DNA from: an uncultured Chloroflexia bacterium
GTDB taxonomy: Bacteria; Chloroflexota; Limnocylindria; QHBO01
Direction: 5' to 3'
DNA: 64,000 bases
NCBI GenBank assembly: GCA_963814375.1
Contig: CAWFCQ010000005.1
Location: 160,001-224,000 of the forward strand
Below the pieces are notes generated by a model. It searched no databases, was not told the origin of the DNA, and worked only from the letters and a program-made list of their open reading frames with translations. Both the position numbers and the translations under genes were made by a program. This document shows positions 7,731 through 32,705 of this stretch, piece after piece. Each line of letters starts with the position of its first letter. Position 1 is the stretch's first letter.

Positions 7731-7742
7731 GCCGGAGCAATG

Positions 7743-12332: not shown

Positions 12333-12400
12333 GAGACGCCCATCGTAGTCTCCCGATGCGCGGCGGCTCAAGGTCCAGCCCGATCCGCCATATTGGATCG

Positions 12401-13586
12401 ATGCGACACATCGACGACGCGGAGCGCCGCGCACGCATCGCACAGCGGCACGGCATCGCGCCGGGGCGGCGCCTCCCCGACATCCTGGCCGCGACCGAGG
12501 CGATGACCGTGCTGCACGCGACCGAGCACGCCACGGTGTACCTGTCGCTGGCGGCGCGGGTCGAGGGCTTGCGCGTCACCGATGTCGACGCGGCCCTGTA
12601 CGAGGACCGCAGCCTCGTCAAGCAGCTCGCCATGCGGCGCACGCTGTTCGCGTTCCCACGGGCCCTGCTGGGTGCGGCGCTCGGCAGCGCCTCCGCCCGC
12701 GTGGCCGAGCAGGAGCGCCGGCGGCTCGCCAAGGCCGTGGTCCTCTCCGGGATCTCGGAGGATGGCGAGGCATGGCTGGAAGCGGCCTGCGCGGCCATCC
12801 TCGAGCGGCTCGCATCCGGTGACGCCATCGGCATGCGCGAGCTGCGCGCGTCGGTGCCAATGGTCGCAGGCACCGTGACGTCCTCGCCGGGCAGCCGATG
12901 GGGTGGCGAGGCCCCGATCGCGCCACGGCTCGTCACCTACCTCGGCGCGCTGGGCCTCGTCGCGCGCGGCCGGAATGCCGGGCACTGGAGGATCGCGCGC
13001 CCGACCTGGACGCTCATGTCGCGCTGGCTGGACGAGCCGCCGGCACCAGCATCGGCGGGAGACGGCTATGCCGAGCTCGTGCGCCGATGGCTGCAGGACG
13101 TTCGGGCCGGGGACCGAGGAAGACGTGCGGTGGTGGCTGGGCGGCACGCTCGGTGCCGTGCGGGGTGCCCTCGCGGAGGTTGAGGCCGTGCAGGTCTCGC
13201 TGGACGGCGGCGGAACGGGCTGGGTGCTGCCCGACGATGTCGAGCCCGTCGCCGGCGACGAGCCGTGGGCCGCGCTGCTCCCGGTGCTCGACGCGACGAC
13301 CATGGGATGGAAGGAGCGTGGCTTCTACCTCGGGTCGTACGCGCCGCAGCTGTTCGACAGTGTCGGCAACGGTGGCACGACGGCGTGGTGGAACGGGCGC
13401 ATCGTGGGCTGCTGGATCCAGGATCCCGATGCATCGGTCCGCGTGGTCCTGCTCGAGGATGTCTCCGCCGACGCGAGGCGTGCCCTCCAGGTGGAGGCCG
13501 ATCGGCTGACCGCGTGGCTCGACGGGGTGCAGATCGCGACCGTCTACAGCGCGGCGGCGATGCGGGCGGCGCGCTCGGAGGGCTAG
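12401..13586 (+). CDS. AlkZ-like (HTH_42) DNA glycosylase family protein (frameshift near 13098)
   Basis: ORFs 12356..13183 and 12903..13586. LHATE..TVYLSLAAR, MRRTLF, FGPGT..DVRWW, ALLPVLD..TMGWKER, WWNGRIVGCW. Confidence 0.85.
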
Positions 13587-15697
13587 GCCTGCTCCCGATG
13601 CGCCTCCATGGGCACGACGTTGTCGGGGTACTTGATCCGGGAGTGATACATCCCCAGCAGCTGCCCGACGAAGGCGTCCTTGATCTGGGCGATGTTCTTC
13701 AACGTCAGCTCGGCATCGTCGAGCTGGCCATCACCCACCCTGCCGTCGACGATGCGGTCGACCATGTCGCGGATGCTCTCCTCGTCCTTCTCGTCGAGCG
13801 AGCGCACCGAGGCCTCGACCCCGTCGGCGAGCATGATGATCGCGGCCTCGCGGCTCTGCGGCTTCGGCCCGGGATAGCGGTAGATCCGCTCGTCGAGCAT
13901 GTCGTTGCGACCGCCGATCTCGCGCAGCGCCTTGTCGTGGAAGTAGCTCATCACGCTCGTCCCGTGGTGCTGCGGGATGAAGCCGATGATCTGGACCGGC
14001 AGCCCATGCTCGTAGCCGAGGTCGATCCCGTCGCGGATGTGGCCCGCGATGATGCGGGCGCTCGTCTCGGCCGGCAGGTCGTCGTGGATGTTGTGGGCAC
14101 CGGCCTGGTTCTCGATGAAGGCGAGCGGATTCTTCATCTTGCCGATGTCGTGGTAGTAGGCCGCCACCCGCGCCAGGAGCGGATCGGCGCCGATGGTCTC
14201 CGCCGCGCGCTCGGCGAGGTTGCCGACCATCACGCTGTGGTGGTAGGTGCCGGGCGTCTCGAGCAGGAGCCGGCGCAGCAGCCGGTTCGACGGGTTGGCC
14301 AGCTCGAGCATCTGGAACACCGTCATGATCCCGAACACGTTGCCGAGCACGGCGAAGCTTCCGGCCGCCAGCACGACCGACAGGACGGCGTTGAGGAGAC
14401 CGACGCCCGCGAGCTGGAGGATCGCCGCCACGTCGCGCTGCTCGAGCAGGCTGAACGCGAGGACGACGGCGACGTTGACGCACGCCAGCACCACGAAGAC
14501 GCGGACGAAGGCGTTGAGCCGCTCGGCGCGGGTGATTGCCAGCAGCACGGCCAGCCCGCCGGCAAGGACGTACACGGTCAGCTCGAGCGCATCGCGGTTC
14601 ATGATCCCGGCCAGCACCGCCAGCGCCCCGGCCATCACGGCGCCCGCGCCGCTCTGGAGCAGGATGCCGATGAGCAGCACCGTGGCCGAGGTCGGCACCA
14701 CGAAGGCGAGCAGGGTCCGATCGGCCGCGATCCGCATCGCAACGGCGCTGACGACCAGCCCGAGGAAGAAGAGCAGCACCGACCGGTTGCGGTGCCAGAT
14801 CAGCGGCTCGAACCGCCACAGGTAGCCGACCAGCAGCCCTGCCACGAGGATGGCGACCAGGGCATGGCCGACGACGGTGGCGACCTCGACGACCGGCCGA
14901 GTCAGGCCGAGCGCGTCGAGCATCTCGAACTGCTCGACGGTGATGGGATCGCCCTCGTCGACGATGCGCTGGCCGGTCTGGAGCTCCACCACCACCGGCG
15001 GCACCGCGGCGCGAGCCTCGTCCTCCTGCTGGGCGGTGAGCGCCTCGTTGATCTGCTCCGTGGCGGCGACCTGCGCGACCGCCAGCGCGCCGGCCAGGGA
15101 TCGCTCGACGTCGACGAGGTCGGTGGTGACGAGGTTCCTGGCCTGGTCGCGCACGGCGGGCAGGTCGGCCTCGCTGATCGGATTGGCCAGCGTCGCCTCG
15201 AGCGCCATGCGGCCGGCGGCCGCGATGGCATCCCAACGCTCCGCCGCAAGCTCGGCCACCACGCCGCGTTCGAGGAACGGGATCTCGGGGGTATCGGCCG
15301 CCAGGCGGACGAGGACCTCCTCGGCGGCAAGGGTGCCTTCGTCGCGGAGCGCGAGCACCCGCGCAACTCGCCGCGACATCGTGTCGAAGGCGCGGAGCTG
15401 GTCCTCCTGGTTGTCGGTCGGCGACTTGATCGTCTCGGTGATGGGCGTCTGGTTGGCCGCCGCCTCGTCACGCGCGGCCTCGGTCAGGCTGGCCGAGTCG
15501 AAGGCGACATCGCGCTGGGCACGGATGTCGCGGGGCGCGATCTCGCCGACCTCGAGGTTCTCCTGGCCGACCGTGATGTTCGCGGACAGGATCAGGAAGA
15601 GCGCCGTGGCCACGATGGCCGTGATGACCGCGGCGCGGGCGAGCGCGGTCTGACCCGCATGCCCGTTCTGCTCGGCCAGGGTCCGCGTGATGAACAT
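13583..15697 (-). CDS. 7TM-HD phosphohydrolase (PgpH/YqfF-like, cyclic-di-AMP phosphodiesterase family)
   Basis: Extracellular domain, 7 TM, then PGTYHHS, YYHDIGK, FIENQ, QHHGT, YPGPKPQSRE, MLADGVEA. Confidence 0.9.
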   Translation of the reverse strand: MFITRTLAEQNGHAGQTALARAAVITAIVATALFLILSANITVGQENLEVGEIAPRDIRAQRDVAFDSASLTEAARDEAAANQTPITETIKSPTDNQEDQLRAFDTMSRRVARVLALRDEGTLAAEEVLVRLAADTPEIPFLERGVVAELAAERWDAIAAAGRMALEATLANPISEADLPAVRDQARNLVTTDLVDVERSLAGALAVAQVAATEQINEALTAQQEDEARAAVPPVVVELQTGQRIVDEGDPITVEQFEMLDALGLTRPVVEVATVVGHALVAILVAGLLVGYLWRFEPLIWHRNRSVLLFFLGLVVSAVAMRIAADRTLLAFVVPTSATVLLIGILLQSGAGAVMAGALAVLAGIMNRDALELTVYVLAGGLAVLLAITRAERLNAFVRVFVVLACVNVAVVLAFSLLEQRDVAAILQLAGVGLLNAVLSVVLAAGSFAVLGNVFGIMTVFQMLELANPSNRLLRRLLLETPGTYHHSVMVGNLAERAAETIGADPLLARVAAYYHDIGKMKNPLAFIENQAGAHNIHDDLPAETSARIIAGHIRDGIDLGYEHGLPVQIIGFIPQHHGTSVMSYFHDKALREIGGRNDMLDERIYRYPGPKPQSREAAIIMLADGVEASVRSLDEKDEESIRDMVDRIVDGRVGDGQLDDAELTLKNIAQIKDAFVGQLLGMYHSRIKYPDNVVPMEAHREQA

Positions 15698-15698
15698 C

Positions 15699-16145
15699 TC
15701 AGGCGCTCCCCAGCAGGCGGCGCACCACCTCGCTCACCAGCCGCCCGTCGGCACGACCCTTCGTCTGCGGCGAGAGCCGGCCCATGACGCGGCCCAGGTC
15801 GGCCGGGCCTGCGCCGGTCTCGGCGATCGCGGCGCGCGCCATCTCCTCGACCTCGGACTCGGTCAGCTGCTGCGGCAGGAACTCGGCGAGGATGGCGGCC
15901 TCGGCCTCCTCGGTCGCCGCCCGGTCCTCGCGTCCCGCGTCGCGGAAGGCGGTGATGCTCTCACGGCGCTGCTTGACCTGGCGTGCGACCACATCGACGA
16001 CCTCCTCGTCGGTGAGGTCGCGACCACGAGCGATGCGCTGGTTCTGGGCGGCGGCCATCGCCATCCGCAGCGTCTGCGTGCGCAGCTCGTCGCGAGCGCG
16101 CATGGCATCACGCATGGCGGACTCGATCCGCTCCAGGAGCGTCAT
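15699..16145 (-). CDS. GatB/YqeY domain protein
   Basis: AMRARDELR...VKQRRESI...GREDRA...FLPQQL...LGRVMG...GRADG. Directly follows rpsU. Confidence 0.92.
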   Translation of the reverse strand: MTLLERIESAMRDAMRARDELRTQTLRMAMAAAQNQRIARGRDLTDEEVVDVVARQVKQRRESITAFRDAGREDRAATEEAEAAILAEFLPQQLTESEVEEMARAAIAETGAGPADLGRVMGRLSPQTKGRADGRLVSEVVRRLLGSA

Positions 16146-16227
16146 GAATGGATCGGTCTCGGCAACATCGGTCTCGCTGGATCCTCCGCTGCGCCGCGAT
16201 CGGTTCGGTTGAAGGGCTTGCGTCTGG

Positions 16228-16407
16228 CTACGCGCGCGAGGTTGCCTTGCGCTTCTTGGCTTCCTTGCGCTTGCGCTTCACGCTGGGCTTCTCGTAGTGC
16301 TCACGGCGTCGTGCCTCGGCCAGGATTCCCGACTGCTGGATCTTCTTGTTGAAGCGACGCAGCGCGCTCTCGAACGTCTCGTTCTCGCCCACGCGAACTT
16401 CTGCCAA
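16228..16407 (-). CDS. rpsU: 30S ribosomal protein S21
   Basis: TTG start after [25 protein letters not shown]...[16 protein letters not shown]. Confidence 0.96.
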
Positions 16408-16486
16408 ACGTCTCGCCTCCTTCCCGCTCGAATTTCGCGCCCTTCGTATCGATGGCGACCAGGCCGCCGGGCACGCAAGCCGGTGC

Positions 16487-16515
16487 AGGGTAGCAGCGGG
16501 TCCGATGAGGGTCAA
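16487..16515 (-). promoter_or_regulatory. Sigma70-type promoter of rpsU
   Basis: Minus strand TTGACC-N17-TACCCT with an extended -10 TG. Confidence 0.6.
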
Positions 16516-16575
16516 TCGAGGCCACTCAGCGGCGAAGCGCGCTGAAAGTATATACGTATATACGCCGCAGGGCAG

Positions 16576-17956
16576 TCAGTCCTCTCCGCAGACCTCGGAG
16601 TCGGAGCAATGGACGACGATGCCATTCACGATCGTGGCGATGACTTCCATCCCCCGGATCTCGTCGGGAGTGGCGTCGAGCACGTCGCCGGAGAGGATGG
16701 TGACGTCGCCGAGCGTGCCTGGGGCCAGGTGGCCGCGTCGCTCTTCGTCGCCGAGGGCGTATGCAGCGTCCACGGTTGCGGCGCGCAGGCCCTCCTCCGC
16801 GGTCAGGAGCTGATCGGTCATCCACTCCGGGGTCTCCGGGAACGCCCGACCACGACCGTCCATGCCGCCCGCGATCTGATCCACGGGCCGGCCGATGTCA
16901 TCGGTCAGGACGAAGTCCGGGAAGAACCATGGCGCGTCGGTTGCCCCGGCGACGTGCAGGCCGGCGTCTACGAAGTCCCTCCAGCGGCCGAGCCAGCCGA
17001 TCTGTCCGGACGGGTAGTCGGCGCCACGGCCCATGTAGTCATTCCACAGGACCCAGTCGACCGTGCCGCCGTCGGGGTGGACGACGGGGACCAGGTCCAT
17101 GGCGACCATGCGATCGAGCTGGGCGTCGGAAACCTCGAGGGCGTGGTCGATCCGGTGGTGGAGCGGGTTCGGGCCCGTGGAGCCGATGGCCGCCTCGAAC
17201 GCGTCGAGGGCCAGATCCTCGGCCTCGGTGCTGACCGTGTGGACCGAGACCTGCCAGCCCGCCTCGTCCGCGCGGCCGATGGTCGACGTCAGGTCGGCGG
17301 GCTCCCAGTTGATGATCTCGCCCGCACCATCGTCGAGATGGATCTTGAGCCCCTGGACGCGCAAGTGGTCGCCCACCGAGCCGCGCTCGTGGTCGGCGTA
17401 CCAGTCGCCGAAGAACTCGTCGCCGAAGTTCAGGGCGAGATAGGCGTCGACATGAATCGGGAGGCCGTCGGCAGCGGCGAGGGCCGTGAGCTCATCGAGG
17501 CGCTCCGGGTTGACCCACTGCTCGGCGATCGAGGTCCAGCCGCGGCTGACGGCCGCCTCCATGGCTTCCTCCGGTGAGTCGAGGCCGTAGTAGTCGCGGT
17601 CCCCGATCCAGTGCGCATGCGCGTCGATGAATCCCGGGTAGGCAACGCCCGAGCCGATGTCGACGACCGGCACCTCGTCGCCGGCCAGCGCCATCACCTC
17701 GTCCCGCGTGCCGATGCAGGTCACGAGGCCCGCTTCGATGAGGAGCGCCTCCGCAACGGCCGGATCGTCCATCGTCACGATCCTGCCCACGAGGACGAGG
17801 CTGCCTCCCTCGGAATCGGTGGCGCTGGCGGCGTCAGTGGGTGCCGGGGAGGCTCGCGCCGGAGCAGGAGGGCGACGCGGCCGTGCCTGGAGCGCAGGCC
17901 GTCGCCACGAGAGCAACGGCCAGGAGCAGGGGCGCGATGACGAACGGCGGGTTCAC
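16576..17956 (-). CDS. Amidohydrolase-3 family lipoprotein (frameshift near 17870)
   Basis: PGFIDAHAH, KIHLDDG, SVHTV, HRIDHA, GATDAP, RGHLAPG. GTG 17956 after AAAGGA encodes MNPPFVIAPLLLAVALVATAC (lipobox) in a different frame from the body. Confidence 0.85.
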
Positions 17957-18049
17957 GCAGACCGATTCCTTTCGAGGTAGTCAACCGTACGGAGCCGGCG
18001 GGTCGGATCCCTCGTCAGGCAGCCCGGGCGGAACCGACCTCGCATCACT

Positions 18050-18082
18050 GAGAGCGTCCGACGGGAGCGGTTTTGTTCAATC
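18050..18082 (-). promoter_or_regulatory. ECF-type promoter upstream of the amidohydrolase
   Basis: GATTGAAC-aaaaccgctcccgtcgga-CGCTCTC, matching the motifs upstream of sigma genes 1 and 3. Confidence 0.65.
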
Positions 18083-18094
18083 CCGGGCGAGAGA

Positions 18095-18128
18095 GCGGGC
18101 GGCCGTCGAGGCCGCCCGCGCATCGGTT
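18095..18128 (-). terminator. Conserved cassette terminator, copy 1
   Basis: Plus strand GCGGGCGGCC-gtcga-GGCCGCCCGC-GCATCGGTT, repeated after each anti-sigma gene. Confidence 0.7.
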
Positions 18129-18134
18129 TGGATC

Positions 18135-18945
18135 GCAGCGGCTCGAGGATGGAGCTCGGGCCTCGACGGCGTCCTCGGGATGCAGTTGCACCGTGGCGAG
18201 GACCTCCTCGAACCATGCCCTGTCGTAGGGAGCGACGGCGAGTGGGTCGTCGCCAGCCGTATAGAGCTGGATCCAGTAGCCGCGGCCAGCGGTTGTGACG
18301 ACCGCCACGTTGCAGTCGTCGGCCGATCAGTCCGGTGCCGCCGTCGACGGTGATCGGCTCGGTCGTCGTGCACCCCTCGTCGCTCGCCATCTGCTCGGGC
18401 GACCCAATCCTCGGGCGTGGAATCGCCGATCGGCTGCGAGGCGATGGCCAGGAACAGGTCGTGCGTCAGGATCGGGTCGTGCGAGCCAGTCGGCATGGGG
18501 CGCCGCAAAGACGAGGGGAAACGTGCTATCCGTCCAGGGCCGGTCGCCGCTTGAGCGGTCCATCCCTCGGGGTACGACAGTGAGATCCCGTGCTGCGTCG
18601 AGGTGAAGCTCTGGGTCAGCGGCGGAGCGGATGCGGGCGGCGACGCGGATGGTTCGGGCGTGGCGGTCGGCTCAGGGCGTCGGCGGTCGGCTGAGAGCCC
18701 ACTCCACCGCTCGGCGAACCGAACAGCTGTGCGCCAACGAAGAGGAGGACGACCACGGCGGCAGCGCCAAGGCCGATGGTGACGATCTTGTTCATCTCGG
18801 GAAGCCTCCACGGGCCGATGACGACCCGTTGTCCTGTCTGTTCAGTGCGATCGCGAACCGCGTCGAACGACTCGTAGGGCAGCTCGTCCGGGCCGTCCCG
18901 AAGGAAGTCGTTGAGCTGTCGATCGAGGTCGTCGTGCGCGGTCAT
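18135..18945 (-). CDS. Putative membrane anti-sigma factor 1 (about 5 frameshifts; 3' end approximate)
   Basis: MTAHDDLDRQLNDFLRDGP...PWRLPEMNKIVTIGLGAAAVVV, Pro-rich linker, then an ectodomain (FTSTQHGISLSYPEGW...GRGYWIQLY...VLATVQLHPEDA) spread over several frames. ATGA overlap with the sigma gene. Confidence 0.7.
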
Positions 18946-19496
18946 GCCATTCGCTCCTGGGATGTCGGGGGCGTCCGAGCCTCGGCATCGAGGCTGGCCC
19001 GGAGCGCCCGCTTGGCGTGGTGCATGCGGGACTTCACGGTCCCGAGGGGGATACCGATGCGAACCGCCACCTCGGGCAGCGGAAGCCCGAGGTAGTGGTG
19101 GAAGACCAGGACGGCGCGCTGCTGGACGGTGAGCCGTCGGAAGGCACGCTCGAGCTGGTCTCGGTTGTCGACGTTCGCGTACTCGTCAGGCCCGTGCACG
19201 GGCTCGACGGAGAGGACTCGGATGCCCTCCGACCACTGCCGGCGACGCTTTGCCTCTGCGTAGCAGGCGTTGGTCAGGATCCGGTGGAGCCATGGCTCGA
19301 AGCGCTGGGGGTCCCGCAGGGTGCGAAGTTCGCGCCAGGCGGTCAGCAGGGCCGATTGGACGGCGTCGTCAGCAAGGGCGAAATCGCGAAGGATCCTGAA
19401 CGCGATCGCCATGCATCGGTCGCCGGTCAGGCGCGCCAAGGAATCGAAGGCCTCTCGATCGCCTCGCTTCGCCTGCTCGACCAGCTCTGCGTGCAC
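18942..19496 (-). CDS. ECF RNA polymerase sigma factor 1
   Basis: LVEQAKRGDREAF, DAVQSALLTAW, FEPWLHRI, region 4 EVA...GIPLGTVKSRMH. GTG start after GGAGG. Confidence 0.93.
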   Translation of the reverse strand: MHAELVEQAKRGDREAFDSLARLTGDRCMAIAFRILRDFALADDAVQSALLTAWRELRTLRDPQRFEPWLHRILTNACYAEAKRRRQWSEGIRVLSVEPVHGPDEYANVDNRDQLERAFRRLTVQQRAVLVFHHYLGLPLPEVAVRIGIPLGTVKSRMHHAKRALRASLDAEARTPPTSQERMA

Positions 19497-19551
19497 CCAC
19501 CCCTCCATCCATGGGGTTGCTGTCGCGCCCGATCTGAGCGTGATCGGACTG

Positions 19552-19582
19552 GAGAGTCCGGGGGCAGCCTATCGGTTCAATC
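19552..19582 (-). promoter_or_regulatory. ECF-type promoter of sigma 1
   Basis: GATTGAAC-cgataggctgcccccgga-CTCTC on the minus strand. Confidence 0.65.
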
Positions 19583-19596
19583 CTGGCAAGAGAAAG

Positions 19597-19630
19597 GCGG
19601 GCGGCCAGCCTGGCCGCCCGCGCATCGGTT
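19597..19630 (-). terminator. Conserved cassette terminator, copy 2
   Basis: Plus strand GCGGGCGGCCA-gcc-TGGCCGCCCGC-GCATCGGTT, followed on the minus strand by CTTTCTCTT. Confidence 0.75.
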
Positions 19631-19644
19631 CCGGGTCGGATCGG

Positions 19645-20612
19645 TCAGGGCGCCTCGAAGGTGGCCGACTCTGCGAGGGTCCGCAGCTCTTCGACGAGGT
19701 CGCCCGGCGTCGCCGGGCCGTACATCGCGTCGAGGATCACGATCGATCCGTCCACGTCGAGGATCCACAGCTCGTCGATCTGGCCCGGTCCTTGGTGGTT
19801 CCGCACCACGGCCTTCGCCTCGGTTCCGTAGCTGACGAACTGGTTCTCATCGCAATCGGCGAACTCTTCCTCCCGCGTCGCGTTTGGCAAATCGAACGTC
19901 ATCGGAACCTGGAGCGTGATCGTCTTGCCGGCGAACCCGCCCACGGTGACGTCTTCGGGCGCGGTCGCGGTCTCGTCGCCCGGCCGGCCAGCCAAGGCCT
20001 CTGCGATCTCGTCGGGCGTGGTGGCGGGCGACTCGGGGATGCCTGTGGTCCACTGGCACGGATCTCCGTACACGTTGAACCCTGTCCCGGCTGGCCATGC
20101 CCACCCGAGCAACGCAGCGCCGACAGTTTCTGGCGGGTCCAGGCCGTCGTCGTCCTTGCTAACGCGCATCGAATTCTGCAATGCGAACCATCCGGACGAC
20201 GCGATGTCGACCGTGATCTCCACGGCGTCAGCGCGTCGCCAGTGACGACGAACGGGCCCTGGGGCAGACCACCCCCGGCCGACGGCGTCGGACTCGGCTC
20301 CTGCGTCGGCTCCGGGGTTGCGCTGGCGGTCGGGTCAGCGCCCACACCGCCAGGGTCACCCGGCGAACTGAGAAGCTGGGCGCCAAGAAGAAGGACCACG
20401 ACCACGGCGGCAGCGCCGAGGCCGATGGTGACGAACTTGTTCATCTCGGGGAACCTCCGCGCCGGCCACCAGGTGGCGCGGCGCTGTGGGGTCGTTTCCG
20501 CCAGGTCCAGCACCGCCCCCGCGATGCGGGAGACGTCCTCGTGCCGATCCTCGTGGAGCCACGACCGGATGGCGCGGTTGACGTCCCGGTCGGAGGTCTT
20601 GAAATCGGTCAT
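19645..20612 (-). CDS. Putative membrane anti-sigma factor 2 (frameshift near 20228)
   Basis: ORFs 19899..20612 and 19645..20223. Cytoplasmic N-domain, MNKFVTIGLGAAAVVVV TM, Pro linker, ectodomain VYGDPCQW...HQGPGQIDELWILDVDG...ESATFEAP. ATGA overlap. Confidence 0.8.
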
Positions 20613-21157
20613 CGAGCCACCTCCCGGGGCGTCGGCTGCGCGTCGGCGATGAGCGTCGAGCGCAGCTGCCGCGTCGCGTAATGCAATCTCGATCCCACCG
20701 TCCCGAGCGGCGCGCCGACGATGTCGGCGACCCGGTCGAGCGGCAGGTCCAGGTAGTGGTGCAGGACCACCACCGTCCGATGGTTCAGGGAAAGACTCCG
20801 AAAGGCACGCTCGAGCTGGTCGCGATCGACGACCGCGCTCGTGCCGTCGACCACCATCGGTTCGTCAACCGACAGCAGCCTCAGGTTCGGCGCCCAACGG
20901 CGGGACTTCCGGCCCTCGGCGTAGCAGGCGCGCACGAGGAGCCGATACGACCAGGCCTCGAAGCGGGCCGGGTCACGAAGCTGGGGAAGGTTCTGCCAGA
21001 CACCCAGCAGCGCCTGCTGCGTGGCGTCCTCGGCCAGGCCGATGTCGCTCAGGATCCGGTGCGACACCGCCAGGAACCGATCCGCGATGGCATAGACCAG
21101 GTCGGCAAATGCCTCCTGGTCGCCGCCCTGTGCACGTGTCACGAGATCGGGGTTCAT
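20609..21157 (-). CDS. ECF RNA polymerase sigma factor 2
   Basis: LVTRAQGGDQEAF, EDATQQALL, FEAWSYRLL, region 4 GAPLGTVGSRLHYA. Confidence 0.93.
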   Translation of the reverse strand: MNPDLVTRAQGGDQEAFADLVYAIADRFLAVSHRILSDIGLAEDATQQALLGVWQNLPQLRDPARFEAWSYRLLVRACYAEGRKSRRWAPNLRLLSVDEPMVVDGTSAVVDRDQLERAFRSLSLNHRTVVVLHHYLDLPLDRVADIVGAPLGTVGSRLHYATRQLRSTLIADAQPTPREVAR

Positions 21158-21206
21158 GTCCCTTCCAACGTTTACGGCGTCGGTTCAGACCGACGCTACA
21201 TCCGGT

Positions 21207-21236
21207 ATGGGCGAGATCCGGCCGGCTTTTTTCAAA
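21207..21236 (-). promoter_or_regulatory. Variant ECF-type promoter of sigma 2
   Basis: TTTGAAA-aaagccggccggatct-CGCCCAT, in the equivalent position to the other promoters. Confidence 0.45.
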
Positions 21237-21352
21237 TGGGTCGCAAGCAGCTCGTCAGCGCGCGGCCTGGCCGCTTGGCGGGCAGGTATTCTGCCGTCCT
21301 ATCCGCGGCGCCGTGGCGCCTGTGTGGCCACCCGAGCACGAGGACACACGCC

Positions 21353-21898
21353 GTGACGTCAGATCGCCGGACCGCGTCCCAAGCCTTCGTCGTGCTACTC
21401 CTCGCGGTGGTCGTCGCGGGTTGCGGGACCACGCTCGAGCCTTCGCCTTCGCTTTCGCCTTCGACGAGAGATGGCATGGCCGTCACGGATCTGTCCGCGA
21501 TTGGATGCGCCGGGAACGATCCCGCAGACGAGGGCGAGCTGACGGGTGCCTGGGCGGGGAATGACACTGGCACGTACTACATCCGCCACGTCGGCGACTG
21601 CGTCTGGTGGTTCGGGACCGAGGTGAGAGATATCGCACCCGGTGCAACCGGCCAGCGAGGATTTGCGAACGTCGCCAGCGGGCGCATCGTTGGCACCCAG
21701 GTCGACCTCGAGTGGGCTGACGTTCCACTTGGGAGCACCGTCAACGGCGGGGGCCTCACGTTCATCTACGACGAAGAGCGCGGCGAGCTGACGCTCGCGG
21801 AGCAACGAGGCGGGATACCGTTCGGTGGCACGGTGCTCACTCGCATCGACCCGTCCGCGAGTCCCGCCGCGAGCCCGAGTCCGTCGGCAAGCCCATAG
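21353..21898 (+). CDS. Lipoprotein of unknown function
   Basis: GAGGA RBS, GTG start, lipobox VVAGC, LTGAWAGNDTGTYYIRHVGDCVWWFG, Ser/Pro-rich ends. Confidence 0.8.
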   Translation: MTSDRRTASQAFVVLLLAVVVAGCGTTLEPSPSLSPSTRDGMAVTDLSAIGCAGNDPADEGELTGAWAGNDTGTYYIRHVGDCVWWFGTEVRDIAPGATGQRGFANVASGRIVGTQVDLEWADVPLGSTVNGGGLTFIYDEERGELTLAEQRGGIPFGGTVLTRIDPSASPAASPSPSASP

Positions 21899-21911
21899 GC
21901 GGTCAAACGAC

Positions 21912-21944
21912 GCGGGCGGCTGGCGGGCCGCCCGCGCATCGGTT
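21912..21944. terminator. Conserved cassette terminator, copy 3 (between convergent genes)
   Basis: GCGGGCGGC-tggcgg-GCCGCCCGC-GCATCGGTT. Confidence 0.7.
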
Positions 21945-21959
21945 CCGGGTCGCGATCGG

Positions 21960-22872
21960 TCAGGGCGTCTCGAATGTGGCCGACTCGACCATGGCCCGCA
22001 TCTCCTCCACGTCCTCGGCCGGCGTGTCCGGGAAGTAGCCGGCGTCGAAGAAGACGAGCGTGCCGTCGACGTCGACGACCCACACCTCGTCGATCTGGCC
22101 CGGTCCCTGGTGGAAGCGGGGAGCTTCGTCGCCCGAGCTCGACACCTCGAGCAGGGTGCGGAACTCGCCACCGTCGCAGTCGGTGAAGACCGCGTCCTCC
22201 GGGACGTGAAGGGTGAGCATCTTCCCGGGATGCCCGCCCACGGTCACGTCGACCGGCTCGGTGGCGTCCCGCGAGGCCTGGGCCGACAGGGCAGCGACCA
22301 ACTCATCCAGCGAGGCGGCCGGCTCGGCCGGCCGGGTCGACTCCCACGCGCACGGGTCCCCATAGACCAGCATGTCCCCGCCATAGACGATGAGCCCGGC
22401 ACCCTCCGGCGGGCCCTCAACTCCGTGCTTCACGACGTTCGTGTTGTAGTCAAGCCCGTGCCAATCGGGCGCCGAGATGGTAACGGTCGTTCGCACTCCG
22501 AAGAGCATTTCGTTGACGAGGACGAACGGCCCTTCGGGTAGGGGGCCAGCCGTCGGCTCCGCAGACTCCGGAGGGGTCGGCGTCGGATTGGGCGTGGCGG
22601 TGGCGGTTGGCTGGCCGCCCACTCCGCTCGGGTCCCCGGGCGAATTGAGAAGCTGAGCGCCGACGATCAGGACCACGACCACGGCAGCAGCGCCGAGGCC
22701 GATGGTCACGAACTTGTTCATGATGGGCGTCCTCCACGGGCCGATGAAGACCCGCTGTTTCTTGTGCTTCAATCTCGGCACGAACCGCGTCGTAGACCTG
22801 GTCATGCAGCTGCTCCTCGCCCTCGTTGAGGAAGGCGCTGATCAGGCGGTCGGGATCTCGTGAGGCGGTCAT
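21960..22872 (-). CDS. Putative membrane anti-sigma factor 3 (frameshift near 22768)
   Basis: ORFs 22450..22872 and 21960..22805. MTASRDPDRLISAFL...PWRTPIMNKFVTIGLGAAAVVVV, ectodomain VYGDPCAW...HQGPGQIDEVWVVDVDG...ESATFETP. ATGA overlap. Confidence 0.8.
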
Positions 22873-23423
22873 GCCAATCGCTCCTGGGAAGGCGGGGTGC
22901 CCCGGGAGTCAGCGTCGATGCTGGCCCGGAGCGCCCGCGTTGCGTGGTGCAAGCGGGACTTCGCAGTCCCGACGGGAATTCCGATTCGTGCCGCCACCTC
23001 GGACGTCGAGAGCCCGAGGTAGTGGTGGAACACCAGGACGGCGCGCTGCTGGATGGTGAGCCTCCTGAAGGCCCGCTCGAGCAGGTCGCGGTCGTCCACG
23101 GTCAGGTAGTCGTCGGAGCCGTACGCGCCCTCGACGGGGAGGATCCTCGGGCCCTCGTACCACCGCTTGCGACGCCTGGCCTCGGCATAGCACGCGTTGG
23201 TGAGGATGCGGTGGAGCCACGGTTCGAAGCGGGACGGGTCGCGCAGGGCTCGGAGCTCGGTCCAGGCCGTGATCAGGGCGGACTGGACGGCGTCCTCGGC
23301 CAGGTCGATGTCGCGGAGGATCCGCACCGCGATCGCCAGGCATCGGTCGCCCACCATCCGCGCCAGGGAGTCGAACGCTTCCGCGTCGCCCTGCCGCGCC
23401 TGGCGGACCAGCTCTTCCTGCAC
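22869..23423 (-). CDS. ECF RNA polymerase sigma factor 3
   Basis: LVRQARQGDAEAF, EDAVQSALITAW, FEPWLHRI, GIPVGTAKSRLH. GGAGG RBS. Confidence 0.93.
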   Translation of the reverse strand: MQEELVRQARQGDAEAFDSLARMVGDRCLAIAVRILRDIDLAEDAVQSALITAWTELRALRDPSRFEPWLHRILTNACYAEARRRKRWYEGPRILPVEGAYGSDDYLTVDDRDLLERAFRRLTIQQRAVLVFHHYLGLSTSEVAARIGIPVGTAKSRLHHATRALRASIDADSRGTPPSQERLA

Positions 23424-23474
23424 TCATCCCTCCACACCCGTGGCTGTCGGCCCATTGGTGGACCGATCACCATT

Positions 23475-23506
23475 GAGAGCGTTCGAGGGAGCCTAACTGT
23501 TCAATC
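23475..23506 (-). promoter_or_regulatory. ECF-type promoter of sigma 3
   Basis: GATTGAAC-agttaggctccctcgaa-CGCTCTC on the minus strand. Confidence 0.65.
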
Positions 23507-23512
23507 TGGCCC

Positions 23513-23866
23513 TCAGCCGGGCGGCCAAGCCATCGGTCTACCGCCGAGCAGGTGGAGGTGCAGGTGGAAGACGGTCTGGCCTGCCTCCGGACCGACATTC
23601 GTCACCAATCGGTAGCCGTTCTTCAGCCCGCCCTCGTCAGCGATGCGACGGGCGGCGGCGAACAGCGAGGAGAGGATCGGCCCGTCTTCGTCGGTGAGCG
23701 CGTGCGCGTCGGGAATGTGACGACGCGGGATCACCAGGACGTGCGTCGGCGCGCGTGGGTTGATGTCCCGGAACGCGATGACCTCGGCATCCTCGAAGAC
23801 GCGGTCCGACGAGATCTCGCCCGCCACGATCTGGCAGAAGAGGCAGTCCGGGTCGCGGTCGGTCAT
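23513..23866 (-). CDS. Histidine triad (HIT) nucleotide-binding protein
   Basis: DCLFCQIV, AFRDINPRAPTHVLVIP, GQTVFHLHLHLLGGR. Confidence 0.95.
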   Translation of the reverse strand: MTDRDPDCLFCQIVAGEISSDRVFEDAEVIAFRDINPRAPTHVLVIPRRHIPDAHALTDEDGPILSSLFAAARRIADEGGLKNGYRLVTNVGPEAGQTVFHLHLHLLGGRPMAWPPG

Positions 23867-23920
23867 GCGGGCGAGCCTAGGCGAATTCGCCTCCGGTCGC
23901 CAGGACCGTGGCAAGGCCTG

Positions 23921-25120
23921 TCAGCCATCATCGCGCATCAGGCGCAGCACCTGGTCAGAGCTGGCGTTCGAGGTCGTGGCGTAGATGGCGCCGTCCGGCC
24001 CGCGCGCCAGCCCTCGCAGCCGGCCGTGCTCCCCGTCGAGCAGGACACGAACCTCCCGGACGGTGGCGCCGCCATCCTCGACGGCGAAGAGGCGGAGGTC
24101 GCTCTCCTTCAGCGTGCTGACCATGAGCATTCCCTGCCATGCACCCCAGTCGTCACCCTCCAGGAAGATGGCTCCGGACGTCGCGATCGTCGAAGGCCCG
24201 GACGACCATGAGGACGGGAGATACTCGTCCAGCTCGCCGCACTGCTCCTTCGCCTCGCCCTCCTGCTCCTGGGCCGGCCCGATGACATCAATTCCCAGGA
24301 AGCAGCCGTATCCGAAGTTGCCTCCCGGGACGATCCGGTTGATCTCATCCTCGCGGTCGGTGCCGTGCTCGGGAGCCAGGACGAGGCCCTCCGGCCCCAT
24401 GGCGATGCCCTGCGGATTTCGATGGCCCATGCTGTAGATCAGCGTCGGGCCATCTGCACCCGGAAGAACCGGGTTGTCGGCCGGCACCGATCCATCGCGA
24501 TCCATGCGCAGGATCTTCCCGTTGAGGCTGTCCAGCCGCTGCGAGAAGTGCACCCCGCGAACCGTGTTGGCGTCGCCGGTGCTCATCCAGATATGGCCGG
24601 AATCGTCCATCTGAACGGCGCAGCCATTGTGGTGCACGGCTGCGTAGATGCCGTCGACGAGCGGCTCCGGATCGAGTACCAGCCCGTCGTCATCGATGTT
24701 CAGGCGCAGCAGCGCCGTGCGCCATGGAGCATCCCCATCGGCGCCGTCCGGATCGCGCGAGACGCAGACGTAGGCGTGTGGGTACCGCTCGAAATCGATG
24801 TCGACCGCGATGCCCATCGCCCCGGCCTCTCCCTCGGCACGGACGTCCGGGATCTCGAGCGTGGCGAGCTTCTCGGCGCCGGGTTCGGCGCTGGCGTACA
24901 GGTTGATCCGCCCCGCCCGCTCGGTCACCAGCATCCGTCCGTCAGGGGCGAAGTCGAGGTCCCACGGGACTTCCAGATCTTCTTGAATGACGACGGCCGA
25001 CACCTCACCGAGCCCGTCGCTTCCAACCGCCGATGCGCCCGGGGCGTCGGTCTGAATCGGTCCGCACCCGCCCAGCGCGAGGAGGGCGAGCATGAGGAGT
25101 GTCTGCCGTCGAGCCGTCAC
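23921..25120 (-). CDS. PQQ-dependent sugar dehydrogenase family lipoprotein
   Basis: Lipobox LGGC. PWDLDFAPDGRMLVTER, HNG, GKILR, GHRNPQG, DEINRI, GRLR. Confidence 0.88.
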   Translation of the reverse strand: MTARRQTLLMLALLALGGCGPIQTDAPGASAVGSDGLGEVSAVVIQEDLEVPWDLDFAPDGRMLVTERAGRINLYASAEPGAEKLATLEIPDVRAEGEAGAMGIAVDIDFERYPHAYVCVSRDPDGADGDAPWRTALLRLNIDDDGLVLDPEPLVDGIYAAVHHNGCAVQMDDSGHIWMSTGDANTVRGVHFSQRLDSLNGKILRMDRDGSVPADNPVLPGADGPTLIYSMGHRNPQGIAMGPEGLVLAPEHGTDREDEINRIVPGGNFGYGCFLGIDVIGPAQEQEGEAKEQCGELDEYLPSSWSSGPSTIATSGAIFLEGDDWGAWQGMLMVSTLKESDLRLFAVEDGGATVREVRVLLDGEHGRLRGLARGPDGAIYATTSNASSDQVLRLMRDDG

Positions 25121-25132: not shown

Positions 25133-25823
25133 CTAGGCGAAGTCGCCGGTCCGCGACAGGATCACGGCCGCGGCCGCCACCGCCACCGTCTCCGATCGCA
25201 GGATCCGCGGGCCCAGGCCGGCGAGGGTGGCCCCGGAGCTCGTGGCGAGGTCGATCTCGGAGGGTGAGAAGCCGCCCTCCGGGCCGATGATCAGCGTCGA
25301 GGGCGGCGGCAGCGACCCGAGCCGCGCGCCACGGTGGCGCTCGAAGAGGACGACCGCCGCCGGACCGAGGAGGGCCGTCAGCGGCACCGGCGCCTCGACG
25401 TCCGGGACGACCCCGCGCTCCGACTGCTCCGCCGCCTCGCGCGCGATCGCGCCGAGCCGGTCCAGGCGGCGCTGCGAGACGTCGCGCGCCACCGCCCGCT
25501 CGGTGGCGACCAGCTGGAAGCGGGCGACTCCCATCTCGGTCCCGTGCCTGACCACCCACTCGAGCGCCTCGCCCTTGAGCAGCGCCTGCGCCACGGTGAG
25601 CCGATGCGACGGCTCGCTCGGCGCGACGCCGCGCTCCTCGACGACACAGTCGCCACCATCGAGCCGGCAAGTCGCCTGCGAGCCGTCGTTCGGCAGGAGG
25701 ACGATCCGATCTCCGTCGCCGAGCCGAAGCACGGTGCGCACCTGGCGCGCGATCCGCTCGGGAAGCGGAAAGCGGTCCCGACTCCATCTCGTTCGGCGAT
25801 ACGAAGAACCGATGCACGGTCAT
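25133..25823 (-). CDS. rsmE: 16S rRNA m3U1498 methyltransferase RsmE (frameshifted near 25770)
   Basis: MTVHRFFV...VLRL...TEMGV...EAAEQSER...IGPEGGFS...LGPRILRSET. Confidence 0.92.
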
Positions 25824-26728
25824 AGGGCGTGCTCCAGCGCGAGCGCGACCCACTCGCCGTCGTCGCGTCGGTTCGCGACGTCCAGGCCGGCGTCGCGCAT
25901 CGCTGCGATGACCTCGCTCGCGCGGCTCTCGATGATCCCGCCCGCCAGCAGCGTTCCGCCGGGCGCGAGCCGAGCGGCCAGGTCTGGGGCCGCCGCGATG
26001 AGCACCGCCGCGACGAGGTTCGCGACGATGAGCGGGTGGCGATCGCGGCCCGCCGCCTCGATCGGTGCCGTGCTGGACGGTGAATCTGGGCCGCGAGCCC
26101 GTTCAGCTCGGCGTTTGCCCTCGAGGCCTCGACGGCGAGCGGATCGGTATCCACGCCGACCGCCCGGCCGGCGCCGAGCCGCAGGGCCGCCAGGGCGAGG
26201 ATCCCCGAGCCACAGCCGACGTCGAGAAGCCGCTCGGGCGGAGCGACCTCCTGGAGCATCTCGAGGCATGCGCGGGTCGTCGGGTGCAGGCCGGTGCCGA
26301 ACGCCATTCCCGGATCGAGCGTGACGGCCACCTCGTCCGGCGCGAGCGGCTCGTCGACCCATGACGGCACGATCACGACGCGGCCGATGCGCTGGGCGAC
26401 GTAGTGGTCCTTCCAGGCATCGGTCCAGTCGGCGTCGTCCACCGGCCGGACCCGCAGCTCGCCGACCGGGCGCAGGCCGAAGGCCTGGAGGTGCCACAGC
26501 GCCCGCTCGGTGGAGTCGACCGCGCCGGTGGCGGCCGCGTCGTCGTTGATGTGGGCGGTGACAACGAACGGCGCGGTCGGATCCTGCCGCGCGACGAGCT
26601 CGTCGTCCTCGTCGCGAATCAACCGCGTCGGCTGGACGGCGGTACCTGCCGGCGACGCGGCCGAGGATCTCGGATACGGCCTCGACGGCCTCGACATCGG
26701 CCTCGACACTGAGCTCGAGCCAGCGCAT
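25820..26728 (-). CDS. prmA: Ribosomal protein L11 methyltransferase (compensating frameshifts near 26650 and 26085)
   Basis: MRWLELSVEAD; DWTDAWKDHY; LDPGMAFGTGLHPTT; LDVGCGSGILA; IVANL; GGII. Confidence 0.93.
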   Translation of the reverse strand: MRWLELSVEADVEAVEAVSEILGRVAGRYRRPADAVDSRRGRRARRAAGSDRAVRCHRPHQRRRGRHRRGRLHRAGAVAPPGLRPAPGRRAAGPAGGRRRLDRCLEGPLRRPAHRPRRDRAVMGRRAARAGRGGRHARSGNGVRHRPAPDDPRMPRDAPGGRSARAASRRRLWLGDPRPGGPAARRRPGGRRGYRSARRRGLEGKRRAERARGPDSPSSTAPIEAAGRDRHPLIVANLVAAVLIAAAPDLAARLAPGGTLLAGGIIESRASEVIAAMRDAGLDVANRRDDGEWVALALEHAL

Positions 26729-26739
26729 CGGCTCTGTGA

Positions 26740-27867
26740 TCAGCCGAACAGGTCGCGCAGCCGGTCGAAGACCGAGGGCCCGCCCTTCGGCAGCACCGCC
26801 GGCTCGCTCACCTCGCCGAGCTCGCGCAACAGCTCGCGCTCGCGCCGGCTCAGCTTCGAGGGCACGACGACGTTGACGACCACGTGGAGGTCGCCGCGAC
26901 CCGCGCCGCGCAGCCGTGGGACGCCCTTGCCCTTGACGCGGATCTCGTGGCCCGACTGGGCGCCGGCGGGGACCTCGACCTCCTCGCTGCCCTCGACCGT
27001 CGGAACGGTCAGGGTCGCTCCCAGCGCGGCCTGTGGGAAGGTGATCGGCAGCTCGTGGTAGAGCTCGGTGCCGCGCCGGGCGAGCTCCGGATGGTCGCGG
27101 ACGGAGACCGCGACATAGAGGTCCCCGTTCGGGCCACCCCGCGGCCCTGCCTCGCCCATTGCCTCGATAGCGATGCGCTGGCCGTCGTCGATCCCGGCCG
27201 GGATGGTGACCTGGAGCGTCCGCTCGTCGTTCACCCGGCCATCGCCACTGCAGCGCGTGCAGGGGGTCGCGATGATGCGGCCCTCGCCGCGGCACCGCGA
27301 GCACGCGACGATGTTCACCATCTGGCCCAGGATCGTCTGCGCCACTCGCCGCTGCTCTCCGCTGCCGTTGCACTCGGGACAGGTCTCCGGCTCCGTCCCG
27401 GGCTCGCCGCCCGCTCCGTCGCATCGGTCACACGTCACCAGCGTCGGGAAGCTGATCTCGCGCGTGATTCCGAAGACCGCCTCGGCGAACTCGATGGTCA
27501 GGTCGTAGCGCAGGTCGGCGCCGGGAACGACCCGCTGGCGACGGCGCGCTCCCGCCGGCGATCCCCCGAAGAAGGCGTCGAAGATGTCGCCGAACGGGCC
27601 GAAGCCACCGCCGAAGCCCTCGAACCCGCCGGCCGCCGAGCCCTCGACGCCCGCGTGCCCGAACATGTCGTATGCGCTGCGGCGCTGCCGATCCGAGAGG
27701 ACGCGGTACGCCTCGTTGAGCTCCTTGAAGCGCTGCTCGGCGCCGTCGCCGGCGTCGACATCGGGGTGGTGCTGCTGCGCGAGCTTGCGGAAGGCGCGCT
27801 TGATCTCAGCCTCGTCGGCGTCGCGAGGCACCCCGAGCACATCGTAGTAGTCGCGCTTCACGGCCAT
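26740..27867 (-). CDS. dnaJ: Chaperone DnaJ
   Basis: KRDYYDVLGV, HPD motif, G/F region, four CxxCxGxG repeats. Confidence 0.97.
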   Translation of the reverse strand: MAVKRDYYDVLGVPRDADEAEIKRAFRKLAQQHHPDVDAGDGAEQRFKELNEAYRVLSDRQRRSAYDMFGHAGVEGSAAGGFEGFGGGFGPFGDIFDAFFGGSPAGARRRQRVVPGADLRYDLTIEFAEAVFGITREISFPTLVTCDRCDGAGGEPGTEPETCPECNGSGEQRRVAQTILGQMVNIVACSRCRGEGRIIATPCTRCSGDGRVNDERTLQVTIPAGIDDGQRIAIEAMGEAGPRGGPNGDLYVAVSVRDHPELARRGTELYHELPITFPQAALGATLTVPTVEGSEEVEVPAGAQSGHEIRVKGKGVPRLRGAGRGDLHVVVNVVVPSKLSRRERELLRELGEVSEPAVLPKGGPSVFDRLRDLFG

Positions 27868-27914: not shown

Positions 27915-28185
27915 TCCACGCTCGGGAATCGGAGGGAGGTATGGCGTGTGTGGGGGCTCGGCTATCGGCCAGCTTTACCGATGCCGGTAAGCAACGGACA
28001 ACGAGGCAGCGTTCGGGCGCGATTCTCGGCACAGATTTACCAGCACGAGTGGGGAGCCGACCCTCGGCGAGCCGTTCGTTCTCCGTTGGTTACCGAGATT
28101 GGTAAACGACCGCCGCCGCCGCCGCATAGCCGCGCCAACCGATACCTGACAAGAGTCGTCAGGAAGCCGCCCTAATATCGCGTCA

Positions 28186-30606: not shown

Positions 30607-30747
30607 CGGCCTGAGCATAGTCAAATCGGGGTCAACCGGATGGTTTGTTGAGGGGCGGCCGGAAGACCGGGTTAGTATGCCGGCATACGGTGGCACCGAA
30701 CCGGTGCGTCGGCGGAAGCCGCCAAAGAGATCGAGGGCGCCGCGCAG

Positions 30748-31749: not shown

Positions 31750-31771
31750 CGAGCGCGAGCGGAGGAGCATC

Positions 31772-32689: not shown

Positions 32690-32705
32690 AGGAGTTGATG
32701 GAACG

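Follow-up and report, generated by a model that had tools for sequence, protein, structure and literature searches.

Three paralogous ECF sigma factor genes with putative single-pass anti-sigma partners in a Limnocylindria-type Chloroflexota genome

Regulated proteolysis is the usual release mechanism in SigW/RsiW-type systems of extracytoplasmic function (ECF) sigma factors, and anti-sigma factors of the RsiW type have a longer class I domain that is often zinc-binding. FecI/FecR-like systems and the polysaccharide loci of Bacteroidetes contain many paralogous ECF/anti-sigma pairs, tied to extracytoplasmic uptake or hydrolase genes. CnrY of Cupriavidus metallidurans has, to our knowledge, no large sensor ectodomain of its own. 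The relevant passages of PMC7406223 give class I anti-sigma domains an average length of 101 +/- 33 amino acids, state that shorter ones may be class II, and describe one CnrY helix that contacts sigma4 and another that contacts sigma2. Excerpts of the 2021 ECF classification (PMC7826278) report a putative anti-sigma factor for 114 of 157 ECF groups, usually at position +1, usually with one transmembrane helix, and mostly without a Pfam match; its main text mentions neither Chloroflexi nor amidohydrolases. Here we analyze 64,000 nucleotides (hereafter the window) of contig CAWFCQ010000005.1 from an uncultured Chloroflexia bacterium (assembly GCA_963814375.1), in which a 6.9 kb block holds three ECF sigma factor genes, each followed by the gene of a membrane protein that we call its partner, together with an amidohydrolase gene and a second lipoprotein gene.

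We conclude that this block is probably made up of three paralogous pairs of an ECF sigma factor and a single-pass anti-sigma factor, that the family to which they belong is greatly expanded in Limnocylindria-type Chloroflexota, and that the amidohydrolase is their likely output. Judged from its sequence, the locus appears to follow the canonical ECF/anti-sigma design, and thus to be an ordinary kind of system, with a putative anti-sigma family that is unnamed and modular; its interesting features would be a fast-changing sensor placed on a fixed putative sigma-binding module, and the arrays. A preliminary description, based on the letters of the window, had recognized three units between HIT and rpsU, each made up of a promoter, an ECF sigma gene with its ATGA-coupled partner gene, and a conserved hairpin. 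Both the units, with sigma factors of 182 to 188 amino acids, and the two bordering genes were confirmed. In order of transcription, the region reads HIT, sigma3-partner3, lipoprotein gene (opposite strand), sigma2-partner2, sigma1-partner1, amidohydrolase gene and rpsU, and the whole block is on the minus strand except for the plus-strand lipoprotein gene.

All three sigma factors contain the Pfam domains Sigma70_r2 and Sigma70_r4_2 only, the domain content that defines ECF (group IV) sigma factors, and the ECF superfamily model TIGR02937 (55.6 to 68.2 bits, cut-off 42.9) is the sole NCBIfam model that they pass. They are standard group IV sigma factors. At sub-family level, the SigE-family model TIGR02983 ranks among the best for all three and first for sigma3, with scores of 105.2, 89.5 and 109 bits that stay under its cut-off of 141.55 bits, and the closest solved sigma factor by profile is that of 5wuq (SigW/RsiW, Bacillus subtilis; E-value 2.5e-25). 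For comparison, 79 related loci (designated by L and a number) were obtained from a scan of species-representative genomes with the partner alignment. Sigma1 is 73% identical to sigma3 and 49% to sigma2, whereas orthologues elsewhere are closer, at 92% for sigma3 (L004), 95% for sigma2 (L064) and 96% for sigma1 (L042); in a quick tree, the three sigma factors fall into three separate supported clades, each with its own orthologues. The three cassettes are therefore old paralogues, and a recent local triplication was rejected.

Each sigma gene is translationally coupled to its partner gene. The stop codon of the sigma gene overlaps the ATG of the partner gene, in the sequence ATGA, in all three pairs of the window, and a downstream open reading frame (ORF) starting 1 nucleotide before the sigma stop, that is, with a 4-nucleotide overlap, follows 102 of the 111 unsplit sigma genes in related loci. 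In an alignment of 65 partner N-termini, a cytoplasmic part of about 47 residues closes with Q-R and a run of basic residues, and a hydrophobic helix comes next. The AlphaFold2 model of an intact partner1-type orthologue (L016:7641-8456) contains helices at residues 4-17 and 26-36, at a predicted local distance difference test (pLDDT) score of 60-73, followed by a transmembrane helix at 54-74, a disordered linker and an ectodomain at pLDDT >=95; the ectodomain of the partner3 ORF of the window was likewise modeled at >=95. With Foldseek, the partner3 ectodomain matched LpqN at an E-value of 1e-4, and also MTC28 and CyanoP/PsbP, while the partner1-type ectodomain, taken from the model of the intact orthologue, matched CyanoP at 1e-6 with a TM-score (by target) of up to 0.58. 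Both types are PsbP/Mog1-like (Foldseek probability 1.00, TM-score by target 0.48-0.58), although at 9-18% identity the match is at fold level only. Two cysteines are invariant or nearly so within each ectodomain type.

An alignment of the two partner types with hhalign joins their N-domains, transmembrane helices and linkers, but not their ectodomains: that of partner2 belongs to the same sequence family as that of partner3, and that of partner1 to a second, sequence-unrelated PsbP-like family. Among relatives of partner1, P0121-P0131 and L044 10001-11269 have 400-430 amino acids, with two tandem copies of the partner1-type ectodomain. Another partner homologue, P0098, falls in the ESM Atlas among unnamed Chloroflexota clusters only, plus one structural neighbor (TM-score 0.55 by query), a Chloroflexota cluster in which 98% of members have a guanylate/adenylate cyclase domain; this modeled likeness hints that the P0098-type ectodomain may also be used by other signaling proteins.

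The partner family could not be given a name, as the preliminary description had already noted. The partners have no match in Pfam even at E<=10, reach no NCBIfam model at its cut-off, and match no PDB sequence. No window partner matches the Pfam families PsbP_2 or Lpp-LpqN, and one partner relative scores 21.9 bits with PsbP_2, under the 27-bit threshold. A class I anti-sigma domain (zf-HC2, RskA and similar; about 100 amino acids and four helices) was not recognized, as the N-domain has no Pfam hit, about 47 amino acids and two modeled helices. Its size is that of class II, without a match to the CnrY model, since the CnrY/NccY model hits 1 of 65 N-domains, weakly, at an E-value of 0.062. 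The NCBIfam model NF052375 ('anti-sigma factor') gives weak hits in 38 of the 65 N-domains, the best at 24.7 bits against a cut-off of 100, and several partners are weakly hit by NF038083 (CU044_5270 family) and NF052375 across the N-domain and transmembrane region, again at no more than 24.7 bits against 100; the NF052375 hits are a hint, at the level of sequence, of distant kinship with a curated anti-sigma family.

Homologues are abundant. The partner3 ORF has at least 874 at E<=1e-3, the named ones all 'hypothetical' and with no Pfam domain among the matches listed, and the partner1 ectodomain has 720, none of them named. A profile of the N-domain and transmembrane helix matches 4498 cluster representatives at E<=1e-3 and 2092 at E<=1e-10; the match spans residues 1-74 in nearly all of 150 representatives listed, and a Pfam scan of 86 representatives left 84 without a hit. 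Our literature searches did not find a published description of this partner family, the supplement of PMC7826278 being represented by four passages, nor any anti-sigma factor linked to PsbP or LpqN. Publications on Limnocylindria and sigma factors gave sigma factor counts only; the excerpts on ECF classification and tandem paralogues contained nothing on this partner family, and those on CU044_5270 concerned unrelated matter only. The missing name is ordinary, since anti-sigma factors without a Pfam match are the rule among ECF groups, according to the excerpts of PMC7826278.

Does the partner act as an inhibitor at all? It could instead be a co-transcribed membrane sensor or envelope protein, for example a sigma activator or the first member of the regulon. 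Such a role would agree with a cytoplasmic part of about 47 amino acids, shorter than the class I mean of 101 +/- 33 in the passages of PMC7406223, with the lack of any anti-sigma model above its cut-off, and with the caution, in the excerpts of PMC7826278, that putative anti-sigma factors need not all act as such. We nevertheless find it improbable, given the +1 position with its 4-nucleotide overlap in 102 of 111 cases, the recurrent weak hits to an NCBIfam anti-sigma model, the two-helix anti-sigma factor CnrY as a solved precedent (in the same passages of PMC7406223), and the co-divergence of the N-domain, but not of the ectodomain, with the sigma factor.

This co-divergence was measured in 63 sigma-partner pairs, where distances between sigma factors correlate with those between N-domains (Mantel r=0.90, p=0.001), as against r=0.14 for ectodomains. 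In orthologous cassettes, identity is 87-95% for the sigma factor, 66-89% for the N-domain and 42-57% for the ectodomain, and DNA divergence is 4-12% for sigma and 14-37% for partner genes; no other part of the cassette changes nearly as fast as the ectodomain. Moreover, 81 partner ORFs sort into 10 ectodomain clusters, with 62, 7, 4 and 2 members plus six singletons, in a sample biased by the way loci were fetched. The modularity proposed in the preliminary description is thus borne out, as a single N-domain and transmembrane scaffold is combined with ectodomains from at least 10 unrelated clusters. This is consistent with an N-domain that would be constrained by its sigma factor and a sensor that would be free to change.

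Two promoter-like patterns were scanned for in the related loci and the window: type A, ATTGAAC-N14-20-YNCTCT, and type B, TTGA-N19-27-CCATAC. Upstream of genes in the related loci, type A is present at 31 of 65 sigma1/sigma3-like genes and at 0 of 42 sigma2-like genes, whereas type B is present at 30 of these 42 and at 0 of these 65. They are clade-specific, mutually exclusive motifs that follow the two sigma clades, and we regard them as predicted promoters. Across the 64-kb window, the patterns match only 5' of sigma3 and the amidohydrolase gene (type A) and of sigma2 (type B); the sigma1 site is a close variant of type A that is also found 5' of sigma1 orthologues in L042, L004, L064 and L031. 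The exact word GATTGAAC has three copies in the window, 5' of sigma3, sigma1 and the amidohydrolase gene, and GATTGA occurs in 77 of 109 sigma upstream regions compared to 36 of 2000 random windows. In the loci, type A is also present 5' of amidohydrolase genes, at 7 of 37 (L004, L064, L042/L077), against a background of 0.5%. A scan for sigma-70 promoters returned no site.

At the other end of each unit, a GC-rich hairpin with a stem of 10-11 base pairs lies 3' of the partner gene and begins inside an identical 19-mer, AACCGATGCGCGGGCGGCC. This 19-mer has exactly three copies in 64 kb, one 3' of each partner (0 of 100 shuffles reached three), and is absent from all 79 related loci and from the rest of the window. 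Perfect stems of at least 8 base pairs, usually GCGGGCGGCC, lie within 110 nucleotides downstream of 31 of 61 partner genes in the loci, compared to 3.6% of random windows. An Rfam search over 15500-24500 gave one chance-level match only (E-value 0.49). Identical junction sequences of 19-27 nucleotides between cassettes, in an assembly that clearly has errors, could mean that dispersed paralogous cassettes were mis-assembled into a tandem array. We consider this highly unlikely, as the sigma factors are only 49-73% identical, the shared junctions are not long enough for long reads to collapse over them, L053 has collinear flanks, and similar arrays exist in independent metagenome-assembled genomes (MAGs), including short-read contigs, with three cassettes in L020 and two each in L012, L016 and L074.

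The preliminary description had suggested comparing the HIT-rpsU interval across relatives and had presented the locus as expandable; the comparison was made in one fully syntenic locus (L053) and two partial ones, and the number of cassettes does vary. L053 is collinear with the window for hrcA/dnaK, dnaJ, prmA, rsmE and HIT on one side and for rpsU, yqeY and the 7TM-HD gene on the other. Its HIT-rpsU interval contains one sigma gene (85% identity to sigma3), one partner gene with a third ectodomain type and a convergent lipoprotein gene, against three cassettes and an amidohydrolase gene here, so that a sigma3-partner3-lipoprotein unit is common to both genomes at this site. The 4.7 kb with sigma2, partner2, sigma1, partner1 and the amidohydrolase gene are either extra in the window or lost in L053. 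The cassettes had been described as inserted between HIT and rpsU; this seems not to hold for all of them, as cassette 3 and the lipoprotein gene look resident at the site. An insertion by horizontal transfer marked by base composition was rejected, the guanine plus cytosine content of the block (0.66-0.71) lying within the range of its flanks (0.66-0.77), and a Pfam scan of 144 window ORFs detected no integrase or transposase domain.

Over the 79 loci, 11 have no unsplit sigma gene, 37 have one, 26 two, four have four and one has five; at least two are thus present in 31 loci, and four or five in five, counts that describe the family and not genomes, since the loci were fetched with family-derived patterns. 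Their record titles are mostly those of Limnocylindria, Limnocylindrales, Chloroflexia or Chloroflexota MAGs. The loci that are close by sigma identity (L004, L031, L042/L077, L064) hold the same three cassette types, plus others, in various orders, each locus with amidohydrolase genes. In L011, a sigma3-like cassette (2721-4171, 86% sigma identity) lies between the 7TM-HD gene and amt/ybeY, a position that an AlkZ-like gene fills in the window; around one and the same housekeeping region, cassettes thus take different slots. Five loci with sigma factors 68-87% identical (L001, L009, L030, L054, L066) come from MAGs titled Pleomorphomonadaceae, Binatia, Polarisedimenticolia, Patescibacteria or Methylomirabilota, and mis-binned contigs seem likelier than gene transfer.

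The amidohydrolase belongs to the Amidohydro_3 family, with 116.7 bits for PF07969 against a gathering threshold of 29.7, and its translation contains DAHAHW, with the HxH metal motif of these metal-dependent hydrolases. Its best PDB relatives are uncharacterized hydrolases (E-value 2e-5), and homologues lie 3' of sigma-partner pairs in 28 of 79 loci. The second lipoprotein has no match in Pfam, NCBIfam or PDB; its homologues adjoin cassettes in L004, L031, L053 and L064. That both genes encode lipoproteins, as first described, was upheld by the lipobox signal peptide of the amidohydrolase, which starts at GTG 17956, and by the VVAGC lipobox of the plus-strand gene. The lipoprotein amidohydrolase is likely to be the output gene of the block.

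The preliminary description had overlooked that none of the three partner genes is a single open frame in this sequence. Eight frameshifts occur in the 6.9 kb block, five in partner1 and one each in partner2, partner3 and the amidohydrolase gene, and none in the sigma genes. Those of partner3 (near 22765) and partner2 (near 20230) were located by three-frame translation against intact homologues of 300-310 amino acids, with which the pieces of partner3 align over their full length, that of the amidohydrolase gene (near 17850, after the signal peptide and before the catalytic part) by comparison with homologues, and the partner1 indels (near 18676, 18540, 18480, 18399 and 18323) by DNA alignment with the intact 272-amino-acid orthologue L016:7641-8456, at 81% identity. 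Partner1 is also without a stop codon at the end of the orthologue, and its last frame stays open as far as 18045, beyond both the hairpin and the type A promoter. The layout first given for the partners (N-domain, transmembrane helix, Pro-rich linker, Cys-containing ectodomain) agrees with the intact homologues but, in the window itself, is seen only by reading across the frameshifts.

Most likely, all eight frameshifts arose as errors in the assembly consensus, and the organism itself has intact genes. Outside the block, Pfam domains are split across adjacent frames in mfd, prmA, two AlkZ-like genes and a Na+/H+ antiporter gene, so that the assembly has indels well away from it, and comparison with the syntenic short-read locus L053 locates two shifts in prmA and one in alkZ in about 13 kb. 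Truncated partner ORFs (<200 amino acids) are limited to one series of long-contig MAGs, where they number 19 of 51 as against 0 of 45 in other MAGs (Fisher p 9e-7), and sigma and amidohydrolase genes are split in that series too. The shifted pieces of partner1 keep the conserved residues and have no in-frame stops. Split housekeeping genes and this restriction to one series led us to read the shifts as errors. P0017, a 97%-identical relative of partner3 from a 684-kb contig, is recorded as a 182-amino-acid ORF only, starting inside the ectodomain; its gene is probably interrupted in its assembly too.

Were the frameshifts real, the anti-sigma genes and perhaps the amidohydrolase gene would be pseudogenes, and either the sigma factors would be unregulated or the block would be what is left of a redundant set of paralogues in decay. 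In favor of this, every partner gene has shifts and no sigma gene has any, shifts are about five times as dense in the block as in syntenic housekeeping DNA, partner1 combines five indels with a lost stop, and P0017 is recorded only in its short form. We give this scenario little credit, because genes that are essential or conserved, prmA and mfd, are also shifted in the window, the truncations belong to a single assembly series in which other cassette genes are split as well, and, indels aside, the pieces have neither acquired stop codons nor lost conserved residues. The higher density of shifts within the block may stem from a mixture of strains or from mis-mapping of paralogous reads. The gene calls in this assembly and in one related MAG series are damaged by indels, which should serve as a warning.

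Several points weigh against the interpretation of the block as intact sigma/anti-sigma pairs. Uniform error predicts about 1.6 shifts in 6.9 kb from the 3 in about 13 kb of syntenic housekeeping DNA, compared to the 8 present; the sigma genes are free of shifts, and partner1 is without the stop codon of its orthologue. The N-domain helices were modeled at pLDDT 60-73 only, and no known anti-sigma family scores above threshold; binding of the partner to its sigma factor is a prediction. Tight physical linkage, with recombination breakpoints in the linker, could also make sigma and N-domain diverge together. A strict type A match is missing at about half of the sigma1/sigma3-like genes, and type A coverage of amidohydrolase genes is partial, 7 of 37, or 5 of 35 without a contig that appears twice, all in close relatives. 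The family-derived way of fetching the loci adds to this list.

With the block taken as intact sigma/anti-sigma pairs, a mechanism can be proposed in which gene arrangement and conservation are observed, and binding, release and promoter use are predicted. The two-helix N-domain would keep its own sigma factor inactive at the membrane until the ectodomain senses a cell-surface cue, whereupon the sigma factor would be released by proteolysis or conformational change. Free sigma would then transcribe its own operon, from the type A site for sigma1 and sigma3 and the type B site for sigma2, and sigma1 and/or sigma3 would also drive the amidohydrolase gene from its type A site in this lineage. The shared terminator-promoter junctions would allow cassettes to be gained, lost and reordered.

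More tentatively, the locus may belong to a large undescribed ECF system of Limnocylindria-type Chloroflexota, in which a minimal, class II-like two-helix element is fused through a transmembrane helix and a Pro-rich linker to PsbP-like or other sensors; these would be swapped or evolve fast while sigma and binding element stay fixed, arrays would recombine at shared terminator-promoter junctions, and each cassette would switch on a surface amidohydrolase. We regard this broader picture as possible but doubtful; if true, the cassettes would together form an array of diversifying sensors directed at extracellular substrates or at envelope cues.

Table 1. Features of the block, its flanking genes and the split genes elsewhere in the window (window coordinates)
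Feature	Position	Strand	Remarks
HIT	23914..23513	-	One flank of the block
Type A promoter-like site of sigma3	23476..23505	-	ATTGAAC-N17-CGCTCT
ECF sigma factor 3, 184 amino acids	22869..23423	-	Pfam Sigma70_r2 and Sigma70_r4_2; TIGR02937 68 bits
Partner 3, putative anti-sigma	21960..22872	-	ATGA overlap with sigma3; one frameshift near 22765
Conserved 19-mer and GC-rich hairpin after partner 3	21911..21944	-	Faces the 3' end of the convergent lipoprotein gene
Lipoprotein, unnamed family	21251..21898	+	Lipobox VVAGC; convergent with partner 3, divergent from sigma2
Type B promoter-like site of sigma2	21205..21235	-	TTGAA-N20-CCCATAC
ECF sigma factor 2, 182 amino acids	20609..21157	-	Pfam Sigma70_r2 and Sigma70_r4_2
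Partner 2, putative anti-sigma	19645..20612	-	PsbP-like ectodomain, partner 3 sequence family; one frameshift near 20230
Conserved 19-mer, 11-bp hairpin and U-rich tract, terminator-like, after partner 2	19597..19630	-	
Type A variant promoter-like site of sigma1	19552..19582	-	GATTGAAC-N16-GACTCTC
ECF sigma factor 1, 188 amino acids	18942..19508	-	Pfam Sigma70_r2 and Sigma70_r4_2
Partner 1, putative anti-sigma	18155..18945	-	N-domain and transmembrane helix homologous to partners 2 and 3; different ectodomain family; five frameshifting indels
Conserved 19-mer and 10-bp hairpin after partner 1	18095..18128	-	
Type A promoter-like site of the amidohydrolase gene	18051..18081	-	
Amidohydro_3 metallohydrolase lipoprotein	16576..17956	-	PF07969, 116.7 bits; one frameshift near 17850
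rpsU	16515..16228	-	Other flank of the block
mfd	4229-7742		Split domain
AlkZ-like gene	12335-13583		Split domain
prmA	25381-27427		Split domain
Second AlkZ-like gene	28150-29445		Split domain
Na+/H+ antiporter gene	34069-35710		Split domain

Elsewhere in the window, two further differences from L053 were seen. An arginine deiminase cluster (ornithine carbamoyltransferase, amino-acid kinase family, arginine deiminase), two transporters and a P-type ATPase occupy about 30676-40040, between an EEP-family gene and dnaK, two genes that are about 0.7 kb apart in L053, and a glucose/sorbosone dehydrogenase-like gene (23921-25120) lies between rsmE and HIT, where L053 has a gap of 10 nucleotides. A long plus-strand ORF (39955-42396) antisense to dnaK (40120-42123, minus strand) matches Pfam NAD-GH (PF10712) with 587 bits; we take this family to consist of spurious ORFs antisense to Hsp70, and the ORF presumably not to be a real gene.

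This study describes, within clear limits, a sigma/anti-sigma family with many members in an uncultured class of soil and sediment bacteria. The sharp contrast of a conserved sigma and binding module with a fast-changing sensor would offer a clear example, from nature, of signal input being rewired by modules. The parts open to test are two orthogonal promoter types, a putative sigma-binding element of about 50 residues, two PsbP-like sensor families and a conserved hydrolase output, and they may interest builders of orthogonal ECF switches.

Among described systems, SigW/RsiW of B. subtilis resembles the cassettes in its sigma factor with sigma2 and sigma4 domains only, in the anti-sigma gene at +1, in the single transmembrane helix with the N-terminus inside, and in an autoregulated promoter with an AAC-type -35 element, to which promoter-like sites recognized by sequence correspond here; it differs from them in that the cytoplasmic part here has about 47 amino acids, two modeled helices and no Pfam anti-sigma match. 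CnrY/CnrH of C. metallidurans (4cxf) shares the minimal two-helix anti-sigma element, modeled in our case, but partners of the window type have a sensor ectodomain fused to it, and the CnrY/NccY model barely touches their N-domains (1 of 65). The ectodomains have their fold and cell-envelope location in common with the PsbP/Mog1-like proteins LpqN (6e5d) and MTC28 (4pws), both of M. tuberculosis, cyanobacterial PsbP (2xb3, 2lnj) and DcrB, from which they differ in sequence, at 9-18% identity; we know of none of LpqN, MTC28, PsbP and DcrB as part of an anti-sigma factor. Toward the actinomycete TIGR02983 SigE-family and CU044_5270 (NF038083), there is a sub-family resemblance, with all scores far under cut-offs. 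Finally, compared to FecI/FecR-like systems and the Bacteroidetes loci, the anti-sigma family is another one, no TonB-dependent receptor is present and the arrays are head-to-tail, but what they share is the presence of many copies of one sigma/anti-sigma type per genome, each beside an extracytoplasmic output gene.

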